From NCBI GenBank assembly GCA_964533585.1, contig CAZHMM010000001.1, forward strand, positions 12,940 to 76,939: a DNA stretch of 64,000 bases, given 5' to 3'. Under the pieces are notes generated by a model. That model was not told where the DNA came from. It was given only the letters and a program-made list of their open reading frames with translations, and made no database searches. The stretch comes from an uncultured Elioraea sp. (GTDB lineage: Bacteria; Pseudomonadota; Alphaproteobacteria; Acetobacterales; Acetobacteraceae). Every line of letters starts with the position of its first letter. Within the stretch, counting starts at the first letter, position 1. A program made the translations under genes and the position numbers. This document shows positions 2,207-8,899 of this stretch, piece by piece.

Positions 2207-2235
2207 TTGACGGGCCGTTCGCCAGGGCACACACT
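2207..2235 (+). promoter_or_regulatory. Putative sigma70 promoter of the nadC operon
   Basis: TTGACG (2207-2212), N17, CACACT (2230-2235). Confidence 0.5.
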
Positions 2236-2259
2236 CGATCGTAGGTATACAAACGATCG
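2236..2259. promoter_or_regulatory. 24-bp palindromic operator candidate
   Basis: CGATCGT-AG-GTATAC-AA-ACGATCG; 20 of 24 positions are dyad-symmetric. It lies between the putative -10 and the nadC start. Confidence 0.6.
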
Positions 2260-2270
2260 GGGGATGCGAC

Positions 2271-3119
2271 GTGCTGGAGTGGACTGCGGTCGACCGGATC
2301 ATCGACGCCGCACTGGCCGAGGACATCGGCGCGGTCGATCTCACCAGCGAAATCGTCGTCCCCGACGGCACCCGTGCCACCTTCGTGCTGCGCACCCGCG
2401 AGGAGATCGTGCTGGCCGGGCTTGCCGTCGCCGAGGCGGTGTTCCGTCGCCGCGCGCCGGAGTGCGGCTTCGAGCCCGGCGCCGCCGACGGCCACCGCGT
2501 GGCACCCGGCACCGTGCTGGCGACCGTCACCGGCCCCGCCCGAGCCCTGCTGACGGCCGAGCGCACCGCGCTCAACCTGCTCTCGCACATGTCCGGCATC
2601 GCCACGCTGACCCGTCGCTATGTCGACCGGATCGCCGGGACCAAGGCGCAACTCATCGACACGCGCAAGACCACGCCCGGGCTGCGCGCGATCGAGAAGC
2701 ACGCGACGACGCTGGGTGGGGCGCGCAACCACCGGCTCGACCTCGCCGGCGGGATCATGATCAAGGACAATCACATCTCGGTCTGCGGCTCGATCGCCGC
2801 CGCCGTGGCGCGCGCCAAGACGGCGGCGCCGGTGCTGACCAAGGTCGAGGTCGAGTGCGACCGGCTCGATCAGGTGCGCGAGGCGGTCGAGGCCGGTGCC
2901 GACATGCTGCTGCTGGACAACATGACCACCGAGATGCTGCGCGAGGCAGTCGCGATCATCGCCGGCCGCATTCCCGCCGAAGCCTCGGGCGGGGTGAACC
3001 TCGACACCATCCGCGGCATCGCCGAGACGGGTGTGGATTTCATCAGCGTCGGGCGGATCACCCAGGGCGCGCCAGCCGTGGATATCGGCCTCGACGCGAC
3101 GCTGGAGCCGGGTGGGTGA
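2271..3119 (+). CDS. nadC: Quinolinate phosphoribosyltransferase (nicotinate-nucleotide pyrophosphorylase, carboxylating)
   Basis: [49 protein letters not shown] motifs. Confidence 0.95.
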
Positions 3120-3691
3120 GCGCGGTTGGCCTGTTCTGTGGTGCGAACGACGCGCTGCCCGAGCCGTTCCGGGCAGCGGCCGCCGCGTTCGGCGAGGGCC
3201 TCGCCGCGCGGGGGCTGACGCTGGTCTATGGCGGCTCCTCGCGCGGGCTGATGGGCGAGGCAGCGCGCGCGGCCAAGGCGGCCGGCGGCCGCGTGGTCGG
3301 CGTGATGCCGCGCCACCTGATCAGCCGCGAACGCGCCGCCGCCGACATCGACGAGCTCCACCTGGTCGACAGCCTCGCCGAGCGCAAGCAGCGCATGGCC
3401 GATCTCTCCGACCTGTTCGTCGCGCTGCCGGGCGGTGTCGGCACCCTCGACGAGGCGCTCGAGATGATCACCTGGTTCGATGTCGGGATCGCGCGCAAGC
3501 CGACGCTGTTCGTCGACGTCGAGGCGTTCTGGCGGCCCTTCGCCGCGATGATGGCGGCGTTCGGCGCGGCCGGGGTGCTGCGTCCGCATCTCGCCGGCGC
3601 CTGGTCGATCCTTCCGGATGTTCCGGCCACACTGCTCGCCGTGGAGCAGGCACTGGCGCCTGAGGCGCCCATCGAGGGGAGACTGGCATGA
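3116..3691 (+). CDS. LOG-family (TIGR00730-like) nucleotide phosphoribohydrolase
   Basis: VGLFCGA, LVYGG..GLMG, ERKQRM, LPGGVGTLDE (PGGxGTxxE). GTG start overlaps the nadC stop (GTGA). Confidence 0.9.
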   Translation: MSAVGLFCGANDALPEPFRAAAAAFGEGLAARGLTLVYGGSSRGLMGEAARAAKAAGGRVVGVMPRHLISRERAAADIDELHLVDSLAERKQRMADLSDLFVALPGGVGTLDEALEMITWFDVGIARKPTLFVDVEAFWRPFAAMMAAFGAAGVLRPHLAGAWSILPDVPATLLAVEQALAPEAPIEGRLA

Positions 3692-4665
3692 CACTGGGAC
3701 GACGCACGCTTCTGGGCACCGCCGCGGCGCTGCCCGCATTCGGCCTGGCGGAGGCGCAGGAGGCGCTCCGCCTGACGCTCGCCGGCGGCTCGGTCGGTGG
3801 CGCCTGGAGCGCGATCGGCAACGCGATCGGCGAGGCGATCCGGCGCGAGCATCCCGGCACGGCGTTCTCCTACGAGCCGGGACGCGATGCGGCGAATGTC
3901 ACGCTGGTGTCGCAGGGGCGGGTGCAGCTCGGCATCGCGCACGCGCAGATCGCGCTCCGCGCCATCAAGGGCGAGGCGCCGTTCGACCGTGCGATGCCCG
4001 ACATCCGCGGCGTGAGCCTGATCGACAGCGAGGCGGCGTGGCAGCCGATCGTGCGCGCCGGCGCGCCCGTCGCCACGCTGGAGGAGATCGCCGAGAAGCG
4101 CGCCCCCGTGCGCGTCACCGCCAATCTGCGCGGCACGATGATGGCGCTCGCCACCGAGGAGGCCTTCGCCGCCGCCGGCGCGCCGTTCGCGCAGATCGAG
4201 CGCTGGGGCGGGCGGGTGCACTACGTCGCCTGGAACGACGCGCTGGAGATGCTGAAGAACAACCAGGTGGACATCATCACCAATGTGGTGGACTTCCCCT
4301 CGCGCCAGGTGCTGAACGCGGTGCGCGGGCTGGACGTGAAATTCCTCGGCTTCGGCCCTGATCTGGTCGCGAAGGTGAATGCGCGGCTCGGCTCGACGCC
4401 CATCACCATTCCGGCCAATGCGTATCCGTTCCAGCCCGAGGCGGTGAACACCTTCCGCGCCCATGTCGTGCTGCTGACCTCGGCCGCCGTGCCGGCCGAC
4501 ACGGTCGAGGCGGTGGTCAACGCGGTCATCAAGCACTTCGACGCGGTCAAGCGCGCCCACGCGACGATGGCGCGACTTGAGGCACGGGCGCTGCCGGACA
4601 CCGGCGGTGTCGCGCTGCATGAGGGTGCCGCGCGCGCCTATCGCGCCGCCGGACTGATGAGCTGA
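3688..4665 (+). CDS. TAXI-family TRAP transporter substrate-binding protein
   Basis: Tat-like RRTLL signal, GGSVGGAWSAIG, IPANAYPFQ, LHEGAARAYR. ATGA overlap with the LOG gene. Confidence 0.88.
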   Translation: MTLGRRTLLGTAAALPAFGLAEAQEALRLTLAGGSVGGAWSAIGNAIGEAIRREHPGTAFSYEPGRDAANVTLVSQGRVQLGIAHAQIALRAIKGEAPFDRAMPDIRGVSLIDSEAAWQPIVRAGAPVATLEEIAEKRAPVRVTANLRGTMMALATEEAFAAAGAPFAQIERWGGRVHYVAWNDALEMLKNNQVDIITNVVDFPSRQVLNAVRGLDVKFLGFGPDLVAKVNARLGSTPITIPANAYPFQPEAVNTFRAHVVLLTSAAVPADTVEAVVNAVIKHFDAVKRAHATMARLEARALPDTGGVALHEGAARAYRAAGLMS

Positions 4666-6539
4666 CCCTGCTCACGTCGCTTCTGCCGGGAAAGCCGCGC
4701 ACGCTTCCCCCGGCGGAGGCGGCGGTGGTCGGCGCGGTCGGCGCCGTGCTCTCGGCGTTCCTGCTGGCGCTCGCCCTCGGCCGGGAGGCCGACCGCACCG
4801 TCAGCCTGTTCGTCTTTCTCGGCGCGGTGCTGACCATCGGCTTCCTCACCGTTACGGGCAATCCGCTCCGCCCAACCGGCCGGTCGCTGCCGTCCTGGGG
4901 ATTGGTGATCGCGACCTGGGCCTCGGTCGGCTGGTTCCTCGTCCACGCCGAGGCGCATGCGCTGCGCTGGCCGATGGTGAGCCCGCTCTCGCCGGGCGAT
5001 CTGATCGCGGCCTCGGCGCTGATCCTGCTGGTGCTGGAGGCGACGCGGCGCACGATCGGGCTCGCGCTCGCGATCCTGGTGCTGCTGTTCCTCGCCTATG
5101 CGGTGTTCGGCGACCGGCTGGAGGGCGCGTTCGGCCACCGGCCCCTGAGCATCACCGAGATCCTCGACCATCTGGTGTTCACCACCAACGGCCTGATCGG
5201 CCCGGCACTCGCGGTGGCGGCGTTCCTGGTCTACGTGTTCGTGCTGTTCGGCGCGGTGCTGGACCGTTCCGGCGGCGGGGATTTCTTCTTCGACCTCTCC
5301 GCCGCGCTGGTGGGGCGGCAGGCGGGTGGGCCGGCCAAGGTCGCGGTGGTCTCATCGGCGCTCTACGGCACCATCTCGGGCAGCCCGACCGCCGACGTGG
5401 TCACCACCGGCGCGCTCACCATCCCGATGATGAAGCGGCTTGGTTACCGCCCGGCCTATGCGGGGGCGGTGGAGTCCTCCGCCTCGGCGGGCGGGGCGCT
5501 GCTGCCGCCGGTGATGGGCAGTGCGGCGTTCCTGATGAGCGACTTCACCAACATCCCCTACGCCGAGATCGTCGTCTCGGCCGCGCTGACGGGGGTGCTC
5601 TACTACGTCGCGGTGTTCTTCGCCGTCCATGCCCGCGCGGTGCTGGATCGGCTCGGCGCGTTCGACGGCACGACTGCGCGCGTCGCCGCCGTGCTGCGCG
5701 CAGGCTGGTGGCATCTCGTGCCGATCGCGGCGCTGGTTTTGCTCGTGCTCTCGGCCGACCGCCCCGTCTATGGCGCCGGACTCGCGGTGGTGATCGGTGC
5801 GGCGATCCTACTGATCCGAACGCGGGCGCCACTCAATACCGCCGCGACACTGCTCACGGCGGCGATCGAGGCAGCGCGACGGGCGGCACCGGTCGGCATC
5901 GCCTGCGCGGTCGCCGGGCTGGTGGTCGGCTCGCTCACCATCACCGATCTCGCCGGCAAGTTCTCCTCGCTGCTGTTCTCCTTCGCGCCCGACCTGCTGC
6001 CGGTGGTGATGCTGATCACGGCGGGCGTGACGTTGCTGCTCGGCATGGGGATGCCGACCCCGGCCGTCTATGTGTTGGCATCCGTGCTGGCCGCGCCGGC
6101 AATGGTCAATCTCGGCGTGCCGACGCTGGCCGCGCACCTGTTCGTCGTCTACTTCGCCTCGATGTCGGCAATCACGCCGCCCGTCGCGGTCGCCGCGTTT
6201 GCCGCCGCCTCGATCGCGGGCGCCGATCCGCTGCGCATCGCGGTGATCGCCTGCCGGCTCGCGGTGGTCGGCTTCGTGCTGCCGTTCTGCTTCGTCTGGC
6301 GCCCGGCGCTGCTGCTGATCGGCGATCCCGTGTCGGTCGTGCTGGCCCTCGCCGCGACGCTCGCGGGCGTGGTGGCGCTCGCCGCGGCGCTGGAGGGCTG
6401 GCTGGCACGACGGCTCACCGCGCTCGATCGCCTGCTGCTCGGCCTTGCCGGTGCGGCCCTGGTCGCGCCGATCGCCTGGGCGGATGTCGCCGGCGCCGCG
6501 CTGCTGGCCGGATGGCTGCTGGTTGGCCGGCCGCGCTGA
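4662..6539 (+). CDS. TRAP transporter fused 4TM/12TM permease
   Basis: LEATRR, GGPAKVAVVSSALYGTISGS, VESSASAGGALLPPVMGSAAF, LGMGMPT, ITPPVA. Start is either CTG 4662 (overlapping the SBP stop) or GTG 4725. Confidence 0.92.
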   Translation: MTLLTSLLPGKPRTLPPAEAAVVGAVGAVLSAFLLALALGREADRTVSLFVFLGAVLTIGFLTVTGNPLRPTGRSLPSWGLVIATWASVGWFLVHAEAHALRWPMVSPLSPGDLIAASALILLVLEATRRTIGLALAILVLLFLAYAVFGDRLEGAFGHRPLSITEILDHLVFTTNGLIGPALAVAAFLVYVFVLFGAVLDRSGGGDFFFDLSAALVGRQAGGPAKVAVVSSALYGTISGSPTADVVTTGALTIPMMKRLGYRPAYAGAVESSASAGGALLPPVMGSAAFLMSDFTNIPYAEIVVSAALTGVLYYVAVFFAVHARAVLDRLGAFDGTTARVAAVLRAGWWHLVPIAALVLLVLSADRPVYGAGLAVVIGAAILLIRTRAPLNTAATLLTAAIEAARRAAPVGIACAVAGLVVGSLTITDLAGKFSSLLFSFAPDLLPVVMLITAGVTLLLGMGMPTPAVYVLASVLAAPAMVNLGVPTLAAHLFVVYFASMSAITPPVAVAAFAAASIAGADPLRIAVIACRLAVVGFVLPFCFVWRPALLLIGDPVSVVLALAATLAGVVALAAALEGWLARRLTALDRLLLGLAGAALVAPIAWADVAGAALLAGWLLVGRPR

Positions 6540-6543
6540 CGCC

Positions 6544-6930
6544 TCAGCGCCGGCAGCGATACATCACCCGGACCTGGGCGATGTCCGTTTGCGTGCCGTC
6601 ACGCTCGATCACGAGCGGCCTGATGCCGCCGGGGACGCGGCGGTACTGCACCATGTCGCCAGGCCGCAGCGGCGCTTCCCCATTCTCCGTGGTGCGCACC
6701 AGCATGCCGATGCGATCGGCCTGGATGACGAAGCGCACCTCCGCCAGCACCAAGCGTTTGCCGCCGTCCCACCACTCGAGCGTCGTCTCGGCGATGACGT
6801 GGCGCAGGCTGGTCTCGGCGCAGGAGAGGTCGGGCGACCAGATGCCGCGCAGATCGGAGGGTGATTCGGCTACTGCCGGCCGCGTCGCTGCCAGGACCAG
6901 CAGGGTGGCCACACAAAAAGATCGATGCAT
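6544..6930 (-). CDS. Secreted hypothetical protein, paralog A
   Basis: Signal peptide ending AVA; LRGIWSPDLSC...YRCRR; 57/107 identical to 7035-7430 in a hand-made ungapped alignment. Confidence 0.8.
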   Translation of the reverse strand: MHRSFCVATLLVLAATRPAVAESPSDLRGIWSPDLSCAETSLRHVIAETTLEWWDGGKRLVLAEVRFVIQADRIGMLVRTTENGEAPLRPGDMVQYRRVPGGIRPLVIERDGTQTDIAQVRVMYRCRR

Positions 6931-7034
6931 GGACTGGACTCTCCGGGCCGTGACTGCCGGCACGTTCCGGCGAGGAGGCAGTCTAGGGCAGTTCGCCAGC
7001 CCCGGCACTGTCGCGTTCGCTTGAATGGGCCGGA

Positions 7035-7430
7035 TCACCTGCGGCAGGCGAAGAAGGTGCGCGGCCGCGAGATGTCGATCGTTGTGTCGTTGCGCATGAT
7101 CGAGATCGGCCGCAGCCCGCCGGCAACGCGCTGATAGGTCACGATGTCGCCCGGGCGGAGCGGGGCATCGCCATTCTGCACCTGCCGCACGAGCGCTGCG
7201 ATCTCATTGCCGCGAATGCGGTAATGGACCTGAGCCGCGGCGACACGCTCGCCCCCCTCGTGCCATTCCAGCGTCGTCCGGCCGACGACATGGCGCGGCG
7301 CGGTCGCGCCGCAGGAGAGATCGGGCGACCATGCGCCCTGCAGGCTCGACGGCGCCTCCACGGCGGTGGCCGGCGGCGCGAGCGCGACGACGAACAAGGC
7401 GGCCACGGCGGCGCGTTGCATCAGGTCCAT
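7035..7430 (-). CDS. Secreted hypothetical protein, paralog B
   Basis: GGAGG SD at 7436-7440; signal peptide ending ATA; LQGAWSPDLSC...FACRR. Confidence 0.8.
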   Translation of the reverse strand: MDLMQRAAVAALFVVALAPPATAVEAPSSLQGAWSPDLSCGATAPRHVVGRTTLEWHEGGERVAAAQVHYRIRGNEIAALVRQVQNGDAPLRPGDIVTYQRVAGGLRPISIMRNDTTIDISRPRTFFACRR

Positions 7431-7465
7431 CCCAGCCTCCTCAACTCGTCGATTCGCGCCGGCCG

Positions 7466-8899
7466 CTACGGCATCGTCGCGATCCGCAGCGCGTTGGTCG
7501 TGCCCGAGGTGCCGAACGGCATGCCCGCGACCACGACGATCTCCTCGCCGGCGGCGGCGAAGCTCTCCTGCGCGGCGATCCGCAACGACTTTGCCACCGC
7601 CTCGCTCATGCTGTGCGCATCCGCCGTCACGAGCGGATAGACGCCCCAGACGACGCAGAGCCGCCGTGCCGTCTCCTCGCGCGGCGTCAGCCCGAGGATC
7701 GGCGCGGCGGGCCGTTCGCGGCTGATCCTGAGCGCGGTCGAGCCCGACATGGTGAAGGTCGCGATCGCCTCGGCGCCGATCGTGTGCGCGACCTGGCGCG
7801 CGGCCGCGACGATCGCATCGGCCGAACTGCGATCCGGCAACTGCCGCGTGGCCTCGACGATCTCGCGGTAGGTGGGGTCGGCTTCCACGCGCGAGACGAT
7901 CCGGTCCATCATCGCCACCGCCTCGCGCGGGAAACTGCCGGCCGCGCTTTCGGCCGAGAGCATCACCGCATCCGCGCCGTCGAACACCGCCGTCGCGACG
8001 TCGGAGGCCTCGGCGCGCGTCGGCGTCGGCGCGCCGACCATGCTTTCGAGCATCTGCGTGGCCACCACCACCGGCTTGCCGGCGGTCCGGCACGCCTTGA
8101 CGATCCGCTTCTGCGCCAGCGGCACGTTCTCGGGTGGCAGCTCGACGCCGAGATCGCCGCGCGCGACCATCACGCAGTCCGACAGCGCGACGATCTGGTC
8201 GAGCGCATCGAGCGCCGACGGCTTCTCCAGCTTGGTCATGATCCAGGCGCGGCCGTTGATGATCGCCCTGGCCTCGGCGACGTCCTCGGGGCGCTGCACG
8301 AAGGAGAGGCCGACATACTCGATGCCCTGCTGGAGCGCGAAGTCCAGGTCGCGGCGGTCCTTTTCGGTCAACGCCGGGATCGGCAGGGTGATGTCCGGCA
8401 CGTTCACGCCCTTGCGGTCGCTCACCTGGCCACCGACCACCACCTCGCATTCCAGATGATCAGCCCGCTTCTTGTCGACGCGCAGCTTCACCTTGCCGTC
8501 ATCGATCAGCAGCGTGGCGCCGATCCCGGCCGCCTTGATGATCTCGGGATGCGGCAGCTGCACGCGCGCGGCATCGCCCGGCACGGGCGAGAGGTCGAGC
8601 CGGAAACGCCCGCCCGTCTGCAGCTGGACGAGCCCGCCGCGGAAGGTGCCGACCCGGAGCTTCGGCCCCTGCACATCGGCGAGGATCGCGATCTGCCGCC
8701 CGCTGCGCTTCTCGATCGCGCGGATCGCCTCGATCCGTGCGGCGTGATCGTCGTGCGAGCCGTGGCTGAAGTTCAGCCGGAACACATCGGCCCCGGCATG
8801 GAACAGATGCCCGATCATCTCGGGCGTCGACGAGGCCGGGCCGAGGGTCGCGATGATCTTGGTGCGGCGGTGGCGGCGGAGTGCAGGCTTCTGTCGCAT
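7466..8899 (-). CDS. pyk: Pyruvate kinase
   Basis: TKIIATLGPASS, FRLNFSHG, DVQGPKLR, MVARGDLGVE, ATQMLESM, AVMLSAESA. Confidence 0.96.
   Translation of the reverse strand: MRQKPALRRHRRTKIIATLGPASSTPEMIGHLFHAGADVFRLNFSHGSHDDHAARIEAIRAIEKRSGRQIAILADVQGPKLRVGTFRGGLVQLQTGGRFRLDLSPVPGDAARVQLPHPEIIKAAGIGATLLIDDGKVKLRVDKKRADHLECEVVVGGQVSDRKGVNVPDITLPIPALTEKDRRDLDFALQQGIEYVGLSFVQRPEDVAEARAIINGRAWIMTKLEKPSALDALDQIVALSDCVMVARGDLGVELPPENVPLAQKRIVKACRTAGKPVVVATQMLESMVGAPTPTRAEASDVATAVFDGADAVMLSAESAAGSFPREAVAMMDRIVSRVEADPTYREIVEATRQLPDRSSADAIVAAARQVAHTIGAEAIATFTMSGSTALRISRERPAAPILGLTPREETARRLCVVWGVYPLVTADAHSMSEAVAKSLRIAAQESFAAAGEEIVVVAGMPFGTSGTTNALRIATMP

Follow-up and report, generated by a model that had tools for sequence, protein, structure and literature searches.

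A nadC-LOG-TAXI/TRAP operon of Elioraea as the probable quinolinate entry branch of a nicotinate-catabolic regulon

Introduction

What does a quinolinate phosphoribosyltransferase do when its gene is coupled to genes for a nucleotide-cleaving enzyme and a transporter? The question is raised by a four-gene locus at positions 2207-6539 of a 64,000-nucleotide stretch of DNA (the window) from an uncultured Elioraea sp. (assembly GCA_964533585.1, contig CAZHMM010000001.1), in which nadC is followed by genes for a LOG-family phosphoribohydrolase, a TAXI-family solute-binding protein and a fused permease of the TRAP type. NadC converts quinolinate and phosphoribosyl pyrophosphate (PRPP) to nicotinate mononucleotide (NaMN), CO2 and pyrophosphate, and LOG-family enzymes cleave nucleoside 5'-monophosphates to the base and ribose-5-phosphate. 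A preliminary description of the window had proposed that the transporter imports quinolinate or a related pyridine carboxylate, and that NadC and LOG together either decarboxylate quinolinate to nicotinate or balance the NaMN pool. Here we report that the operon is most likely the quinolinate entry branch of a nicotinate-catabolic regulon.

Alcaligenes faecalis grows on quinolinate via 6-hydroxyquinolinate and 6-hydroxypicolinate; hydroxylation comes first, the other carboxyl group is removed by an ordinary decarboxylase, and neither PRPP nor NadC nor a nucleotide takes part. We know of no decarboxylase that converts quinolinate to nicotinate. The closest known gene arrangements belong to NAD salvage: as Brickman et al. 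(2017) are cited in PMC11452294, nadC lies in a nadQ-nadC-bug69 locus in Bordetella and in bug27-nadC-phnN clusters in Variovorax and Jezberella. The Variovorax cluster has been read as a source of PRPP, and neither Bug69 nor Bug27 could be paired with a membrane component (PMC11452294). A proteobacterial nicotinate degradation cluster that proceeds via tetrahydro-6-oxonicotinate has been described for Azorhizobium and Bradyrhizobiaceae (PMC3511419).

Results

The nadC gene (2271-3119, plus strand) encodes a decarboxylating quinolinate phosphoribosyltransferase that scored 318.5 bits against the TIGR00078 equivalog model (cut-off 198.4). In NadC proteins, residues of the ER..LN, TRKT, NHR, IKxNH, EVE and LLDN motifs bind quinolinate and PRPP. 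Alignment to the solved NadCs 1X1O, 3GNN and 3PAJ showed that the ER, TRKT, NHR, IKDNH, EVE and LLDN motifs are all kept. The gene is single-copy in the Elioraea genome. The preliminary description had noted that nadA and nadB are missing from the window, and we found that this extends to the whole genome: no NadA was detected in either, nor any NadB above the TIGR00551 cut-off, the best NadB-like matches falling below it. The kynurenine-route marker 3-hydroxyanthranilate dioxygenase is likewise absent from the genome. An internal supply of quinolinate was rejected on these three grounds, and since the dedicated NadC is intact, it must act on imported quinolinate. The genome encodes PncB, NadD, a glutamine-dependent NadE and a partial PncA, while NadR and PnuC were not found in it; with NadA, the dioxygenase and any NadB above cut-off missing, the NadC step is the sole path from quinolinate to NAD through NadD and NadE. 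This gene content, with nadC but without nadA, nadB or the kynurenine route, is that of Bordetella-type salvage.

The same pattern holds for other genomes that carry the module. NadA is absent from 19 of 21 carrier genomes, this Elioraea among them, and 3-hydroxyanthranilate dioxygenase from 20 of 21; 19 of the 21 have no nadC besides that of the module, and the two NadA-positive carriers also hold extra nadC copies. The search for a second nadC beside nadA and nadB, which the preliminary description had suggested, therefore came out in its favour. As a control, NadA accompanied NadC in every one of 24 randomly drawn NadC-bearing Alphaproteobacteria (Fisher p = 8.6e-11 for the difference in NadA absence). 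In a maximum-likelihood tree, 76 module NadCs formed one clade with 99/99 support, which spans alpha-, beta- and gammaproteobacteria and unites loci with LOG and loci with the fusion protein described below. The 24 housekeeping NadCs, including the second copies of the two NadA-positive carriers, fell outside it.

The third gene (3688-4665, plus strand) encodes the TAXI-family TRAP solute-binding protein (TIGR02122, 128.7 bits; cut-off 84.35), which has a signal peptide of the twin-arginine type. It adjoins the gene for a fused TRAP permease of the DctQ-DctM type (4725-6539, plus strand; TIGR02123, 543 bits; cut-off 321), so that the pair constitutes a TAXI-TRAP system. The binding protein is unique in the Elioraea genome, other TAXI proteins being at most 25% identical, and has homologues of 45-65% identity in many other taxa. 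Orthologues (45-96% identity) adjoin nadC together with the permease in about 58 of 71 species genomes, and most of the species without this adjacency have cut contigs; the permease gene lies directly 3' of the binding-protein gene in every orthologous locus. The closest public loci are those of E. tepidiphila DSM 17972 and Elioraea metagenome-assembled genomes (MAGs). The synteny that the preliminary description had asked about is thus conserved. The gene order varies among loci (upstream, downstream or divergent), which argues for functional coupling rather than common descent of a fixed block.

The transporter itself can be exchanged. In Rhodoplanes the nadC-fusion pair comes with an NMT1-type ABC system, in Caballeronia with an MFS carrier and in Ottowia with a TctC binding protein, and at one further locus (L177) nadC and LOG are followed by a TctC gene. 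Overall, the dedicated NadC clade stands beside an uptake system (TAXI-TRAP, ABC, MFS or TctC) in about 75 species. The Bordetella TctC proteins Bug69 and Bug27, which are encoded beside nadC, bind quinolinate in vitro with submicromolar affinity (PMC11452294). The linkage to nadC, the replacement of the transporter by types that include a quinolinate-binding family, and the lack of an internal source support the earlier suggestion that the transporter imports quinolinate, and we propose the TAXI binding protein as a putative quinolinate receptor.

The second gene of the operon (3116-3691, plus strand) encodes a LOG-family phosphoribohydrolase that belongs to TIGR00730 (147 bits; cut-off 96) and keeps the catalytic motifs RK (ERKQRM) and PGGxGTxxE (PGGVGTLDE). 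It shares fold, both motifs and reaction type with cytokinin LOGs (P. aeruginosa PA4923, PDB 5ZBJ) and with PpnN. Unlike cytokinin LOGs, it scored 116.7 bits against the equivalog NF058542, far below the cut-off of 300, and its subfamily is marked by the signatures GGSxRGLMG, with an invariant Arg, and MPRxLxxRERA. Proteins with the Arg before GLMG follow nadC in all but two sampled cases: nadC was directly 5' in all six newly fetched nadC-bearing loci, as in the earlier loci, and two signature-bearing LOGs (L208 and L225) had no nadC nearby. Canonical LOGs, of which about 60 were examined, never adjoin a nadC; the Elioraea genome has such a canonical paralogue as well, on contig C223. Loci with LOG were found in Elioraea, several alphaproteobacterial MAGs and one Hyphomicrobiaceae MAG, and LOG follows nadC also in beta- and gammaproteobacteria, where it is accompanied by the TctC gene of L177 or by nadD (L184 and L248), or no partner was identified (L176).

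Elsewhere, LOG is replaced by a 680-aa fusion of PhnN with an AMP-phosphorylase-like domain. The N-terminal part is PhnN, a PRPP-forming ribose-1,5-bisphosphate kinase (TIGR02322, 183 bits; cut-off 156), and the C-terminal part an AMP/thymidine phosphorylase of archaeal type (TIGR02645, 455 bits; cut-off 435). The fusion occurs in Bosea, Microvirga, Pseudolabrys, Xanthobacter, Chelatococcus, Burkholderiales, Rhodocyclaceae, Orrella, Rubrivivax and others. LOG is present in about 21 loci and the fusion in about 54, and no locus has both. All 11 further fused copies follow nadC, whereas none of 68 unfused homologues (38-48% identity) has nadC or phnN nearby. The fusion joins the activities of archaeal AMP phosphorylase (TIGR03327) and E. 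coli PhnN, that is, nucleoside monophosphate plus phosphate to base and ribose-1,5-bisphosphate and then to PRPP; it differs from these two in that both parts reside in one bacterial protein that always follows nadC. Neither a PhnN nor an AMP-phosphorylase homologue was found elsewhere in the Elioraea genome, which lacks the fusion. At one locus (L050:4841-6879), PhnN and the phosphorylase matched separate stretches and the longest open reading frame (ORF) covered the phosphorylase only, which could reflect either a genuinely split gene or a frameshift in the assembly. LOG and the fusion share one chemistry, the release of the base from a nucleoside 5'-monophosphate, and we propose that the NadC-linked LOG is a candidate NaMN phosphoribohydrolase.

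A 24-bp palindrome, CGATCGTAGGTATACAAACGATCG, lies at 2236-2259 and is conserved 5' of nadC as a putative operator. Related palindromes precede nadC in most of the loci with LOG that we examined (all but L062) and in all divergent alphaproteobacterial loci examined. We built an operator matrix only from the sites of other genomes and applied it to the 4.45-Mb Elioraea genome. The results showed exactly four matches above 20 bits, while in ten first-order random genomes the best score was 22.4 bits and none exceeded 24. The site before nadC (2237-2258) scored 33.9 bits. The strongest site (C221:1631, 35.8 bits) separates a MarR-family gene from a DctPQM TRAP operon, another (C29:9047, 29.1 bits) precedes a nicotinate-catabolic operon, and the last (C7:29029, 25.3 bits) is at the start codon of a ribokinase-like gene. 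MarR orthologues with 45-54% identity adjoin the nadC-fusion module in five other genomes, and the palindrome before nadC is probably the binding site of the MarR-family repressor encoded on contig C221. Control by NadQ was rejected because its published motif, ttATRCTCannntGAGYATaa (PMC5343134), does not fit the operator, which is GATCRTTTGTATACAAAYGATC-like and linked to a MarR gene.

Two of the other sites have neighbours of their own. In the region C221:1158-5090, the MarR gene, the sole orthologue of the module-linked MarR in this genome, is divergent from the DctP/DctQ/DctM TRAP operon, which may encode a second pyridine-carboxylate importer, for instance for nicotinate. The product of the ribokinase-family gene (C7:28144-29050) scored 218 bits, short of the 300 required by the ribokinase equivalog, and the gene is a possible further member of the regulon.

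The C29 operon encodes, among others, a molybdenum hydroxylase, with an FAD subunit and a 913-aa iron-sulfur/molybdopterin subunit, and a 499-aa Cys-rich protein of a family that NCBI names 6-hydroxynicotinate reductase. These proteins are 51-67% identical to the products of genes adjoining nadC and the fusion at two other loci (L096 and L098). An amidohydrolase encoded near nadC in betaproteobacterial loci (directly 5' of it in L137) shares 72-73% identity with an Elioraea protein of contig C46, a candidate enamidase. The C29 cluster matches the proteobacterial tetrahydro-6-oxonicotinate cluster (PMC3511419); the enzymes known from Azorhizobium caulinodans and Bradyrhizobiaceae SG-6C, for which Eubacterium barkeri is the prototype, have their counterparts here on C29 and C46, namely a molybdenum nicotinate dehydrogenase, a 6-hydroxynicotinate reductase, an amidohydrolase and a pair of conserved proteins of unknown function. 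Both the operator and the MarR orthologue were met again at nicotinate clusters of Microvirga, Chelatococcus, two Bosea species, Xanthobacter, E. rosea and one MAG. Of the 21 carriers, 18 have 6-hydroxynicotinate reductase, compared with 8 of 60 random Alphaproteobacteria (p = 3e-9), and the reductase gene lies 3.6-5.6 kb from the module nadC in three betaproteobacterial genomes. These results suggest that the nadC operon and the nicotinate dehydrogenase/6-hydroxynicotinate reductase operon have a predicted operator and regulator in common.

At locus L184 (2461-6062), nadC and LOG are followed by enoyl-CoA hydratase-like, family III CoA-transferase-like and molybdenum hydroxylase FAD-subunit genes, the first two being named from reading their sequences only. 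Such a set would be in keeping with the glutarate end of nicotinate degradation in Azorhizobium.

Upstream of nadC, a promoter can be predicted at 2207-2235 on the plus strand by inspection, with a -35 box TTGACG (2207-2212), a 17-nt spacer and a -10-like CACACT (2230-2235). The TTGACG and (C/T)ACACT boxes and the palindrome are kept at the same spacing in four of five Elioraea loci compared; in the remaining one (L018) they lie about 90 nt further upstream of nadC. The earlier claim of a promoter and operator is strengthened by this conservation among Elioraea loci; a strict sigma-70 consensus scan found no promoter.

The four genes are present and were correctly named in the preliminary description, all of them scoring above their family cut-offs. 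Three successive 4-nt overlaps had been claimed between them. The GTGA overlap of nadC and LOG (3116-3119) and the ATGA overlap of LOG and the binding-protein gene (3688-3691) are exact, but the third, CTGA at 4662, needs a CTG start for the permease, which we rejected as unlikely. The first canonical start codon in frame is GTG at 4725, which has a GGAGG box 6-10 nt 5' of it. Counted from 4662, this GTG is residue 22, and the TIGR02123 match starts close to it, with model position 12 at residue 30. Translation of the permease thus probably starts at GTG 4725, which leaves a 59-nt gap after the binding-protein gene. No terminator-like site was found between the operon genes, this gap included, and co-transcription of the four genes is predicted from gene spacing.

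Systematic clustering of neighbouring genes across the loci was swamped by spurious antisense ORFs of high-GC DNA and yielded a single neighbour, an FRG-domain protein (PF08867, of unknown function). It is encoded just 5' of nadC in 14 loci from Microvirga, Burkholderiales, Orrella, Rubrivivax and Rhodocyclaceae, for instance at L083:3925-4740.

Around the operon, the minus-strand ORF at 1705-2232 (175 aa as called mechanically) contains a ribosomal protein L31 domain from residue 71. The true rpmE start is probably the ATG near 2022, which would leave a divergent region of about 250 bp before nadC. On the other side, 6544-7038 and about 7035-7600 on the minus strand encode tandem paralogous small secreted proteins that overlap by 4 nt and have similar Cys-containing C-termini; the protein of 6544-7038 had no Pfam or NCBIfam match. 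A plus-strand ORF of 283 aa at 42-893 has a helix-turn-helix look by eye. It was rejected as a regulator encoded in the window, since it matched no Pfam or NCBIfam family and the regulator gene sits on another contig.

Discussion

On this evidence we regard it as rather probable that imported quinolinate is converted by NadC to NaMN and by LOG to nicotinate and ribose-5-phosphate, feeding both nicotinate catabolism and NAD. The TAXI binding protein and the fused TRAP permease would import external quinolinate. NadC, by established chemistry and with its active-site motifs intact, would join it to PRPP with loss of the 2-carboxyl group, and LOG would hydrolyse the resulting NaMN. The net reaction would be quinolinate to nicotinate and CO2, with the phosphoribosyl group as a removable handle. 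Nicotinate would then be oxidised by the products of the co-regulated C29 operon, and part of the NaMN would go to NAD via NadD and NadE. The C221 MarR-family repressor probably keeps the nadC and nicotinate operons off until a pyridine carboxylate is present. Of the two functions considered in the preliminary description, net decarboxylation gained support from the exchange of LOG for the PhnN-phosphorylase fusion and from the predicted operator and MarR regulator held in common with the nicotinate operon; balancing of the NaMN pool gained no specific support.

The fusion protein indicates which nucleotide may be cleaved. In genera that have it, phosphorolysis would yield ribose-1,5-bisphosphate, which PhnN would convert back to PRPP and so close the cycle; PRPP would then be catalytic, at one ATP per turn. 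If AMP were the substrate, the gain in PRPP would be cancelled once adenine is salvaged, so releasing a base should pay only where the base itself is wanted. LOG makes no PRPP and yet replaces the fusion, and with nothing to be gained from AMP this favours NaMN as the cleaved nucleotide. The wider proposal is that bacteria use phosphoribosyl as a removable and recyclable handle to decarboxylate quinolinate for catabolism, by means of a dedicated NadC, LOG or the fusion, and TAXI-TRAP; we would put it only slightly above an even chance.

Several observations weigh against the route from quinolinate to nicotinate. Three carriers (two Pseudolabrys and one Orrella) are without 6-hydroxynicotinate reductase, and nadD adjoins nadC-LOG in L005/L019, L184 and L248, which points to NAD synthesis and not to breakdown. 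For the NadC-linked LOG subfamily, sequence does not disclose the substrate. Nicotinate or some other dicarboxylate may be the preferred ligand of the binding protein, whose orthologue in L012/L066 stands without a nadC in its vicinity. Each quinolinate converted would consume one PRPP, which in the LOG version amounts to about two ATP equivalents. PncB and a LOG that cleaves NaMN would also run a wasteful cycle, unless regulation or kinetics keep them apart.

The alternative that survives best, although we consider it unlikely, is that the transporter and NadC scavenge quinolinate purely for NAD, as in Bordetella and Streptococcus pyogenes, and that LOG or the fusion leaves NaMN alone and only draws ribose-5-phosphate or PRPP from other nucleotides. 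A sole nadC in a genome without nadA, the presence of PncB, NadD and NadE and the nadD neighbours just mentioned are what it would predict, and nadC-phnN clusters have been interpreted in the literature as suppliers of PRPP (PMC11452294). However, NAD synthesis needs very little PRPP, and PRPP drawn from AMP would be undone by adenine salvage as argued above. LOG, moreover, gives ribose-5-phosphate rather than PRPP and still swaps one-for-one with the fusion. Salvage for NAD also fits poorly with an operon that lacks the NadQ motif and has its MarR operator in common with the nicotinate-catabolic operon, and with the strong enrichment of the reductase in carriers.

A second alternative, which we judge very improbable, is that LOG or the fusion is the long-orphan nicotinamide mononucleotide (NMN) nucleosidase, turning the NMN left by DNA ligase into nicotinamide for PncA and PncB, with the nadC linkage reflecting general pyridine upkeep. 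PncA and PncB are present, NadR and PnuC were not found, and cleavage of nucleoside monophosphates is what LOG-family enzymes do; but this would leave unexplained both the strict tie of the enzyme to nadC and an uptake system and the MarR/nicotinate-catabolism regulon. Least probable of all is that the module NadC phosphoribosylates another imported ring dicarboxylate, such as a substituted quinolinate, from which LOG releases a modified form: the module NadCs do form a separate clade, an N-heterocycle hydroxylase is co-regulated and the binding protein could take another ligand, but the quinolinate-binding and catalytic motifs are intact, the score is far above the equivalog cut-off and this nadC is the only one in 19 of 21 genomes.

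The proposed quinolinate entry branch thus combines elements of several known systems. Its salvage half is a further case of the Bordetella nadC-bug69 type, with an orphan NadC in a genome without nadA and nadB, beside a proposed periplasmic quinolinate-binding protein. It differs from the Bordetella locus in its transporter family, which is TAXI-TRAP and not TctC and comes with its own complete membrane permease, in its MarR-type regulator in place of NadQ, and in the presence of a LOG enzyme. The relatives with the fusion resemble the Variovorax and Jezberella clusters in having PhnN beside nadC. The published Bordetella-type account, with NAD salvage and PhnN as PRPP supplier, makes no mention of a fused phosphorylase, LOG or nicotinate breakdown as far as it is cited in PMC11452294. 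The nicotinate cluster of PMC3511419, for its part, starts from nicotinate, and a quinolinate branch, NadC or nucleotide cleavage is not described for that pathway.

The preliminary description knew of no account of the gene combination, and we found no account of the proposed route in the searchable literature. That literature likewise offered no description of a LOG or fusion step on NaMN or of its tie to nicotinate catabolism, nothing linking LOG or phosphoribohydrolase with NaMN, or PhnN with thymidine phosphorylase, and no bacterial precedent for quinolinate breakdown through nicotinate.

If the proposed route is correct, it would add a missing entry to bacterial pyridine catabolism and would show a biosynthetic NadC recruited as the first enzyme of a degradative branch under a substrate-responsive regulator of the MarR type. 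It would name a membrane transporter for quinolinate, a question left by the Bordetella work, and TAXI-TRAP would be the first importer of quinolinate that is both complete and of high affinity. Three protein groups that are widespread but have no assigned function would gain new and testable ones: the LOG subfamily linked to NadC, the fusion of PhnN with an AMP-phosphorylase-like domain and the clade of TAXI binding proteins. The route would also explain why many bacteria retain an orphan nadC after the loss of nadA and nadB, and external quinolinate would be both a nutrient and a shared NAD precursor for many NadA-less Proteobacteria of soil and freshwater.

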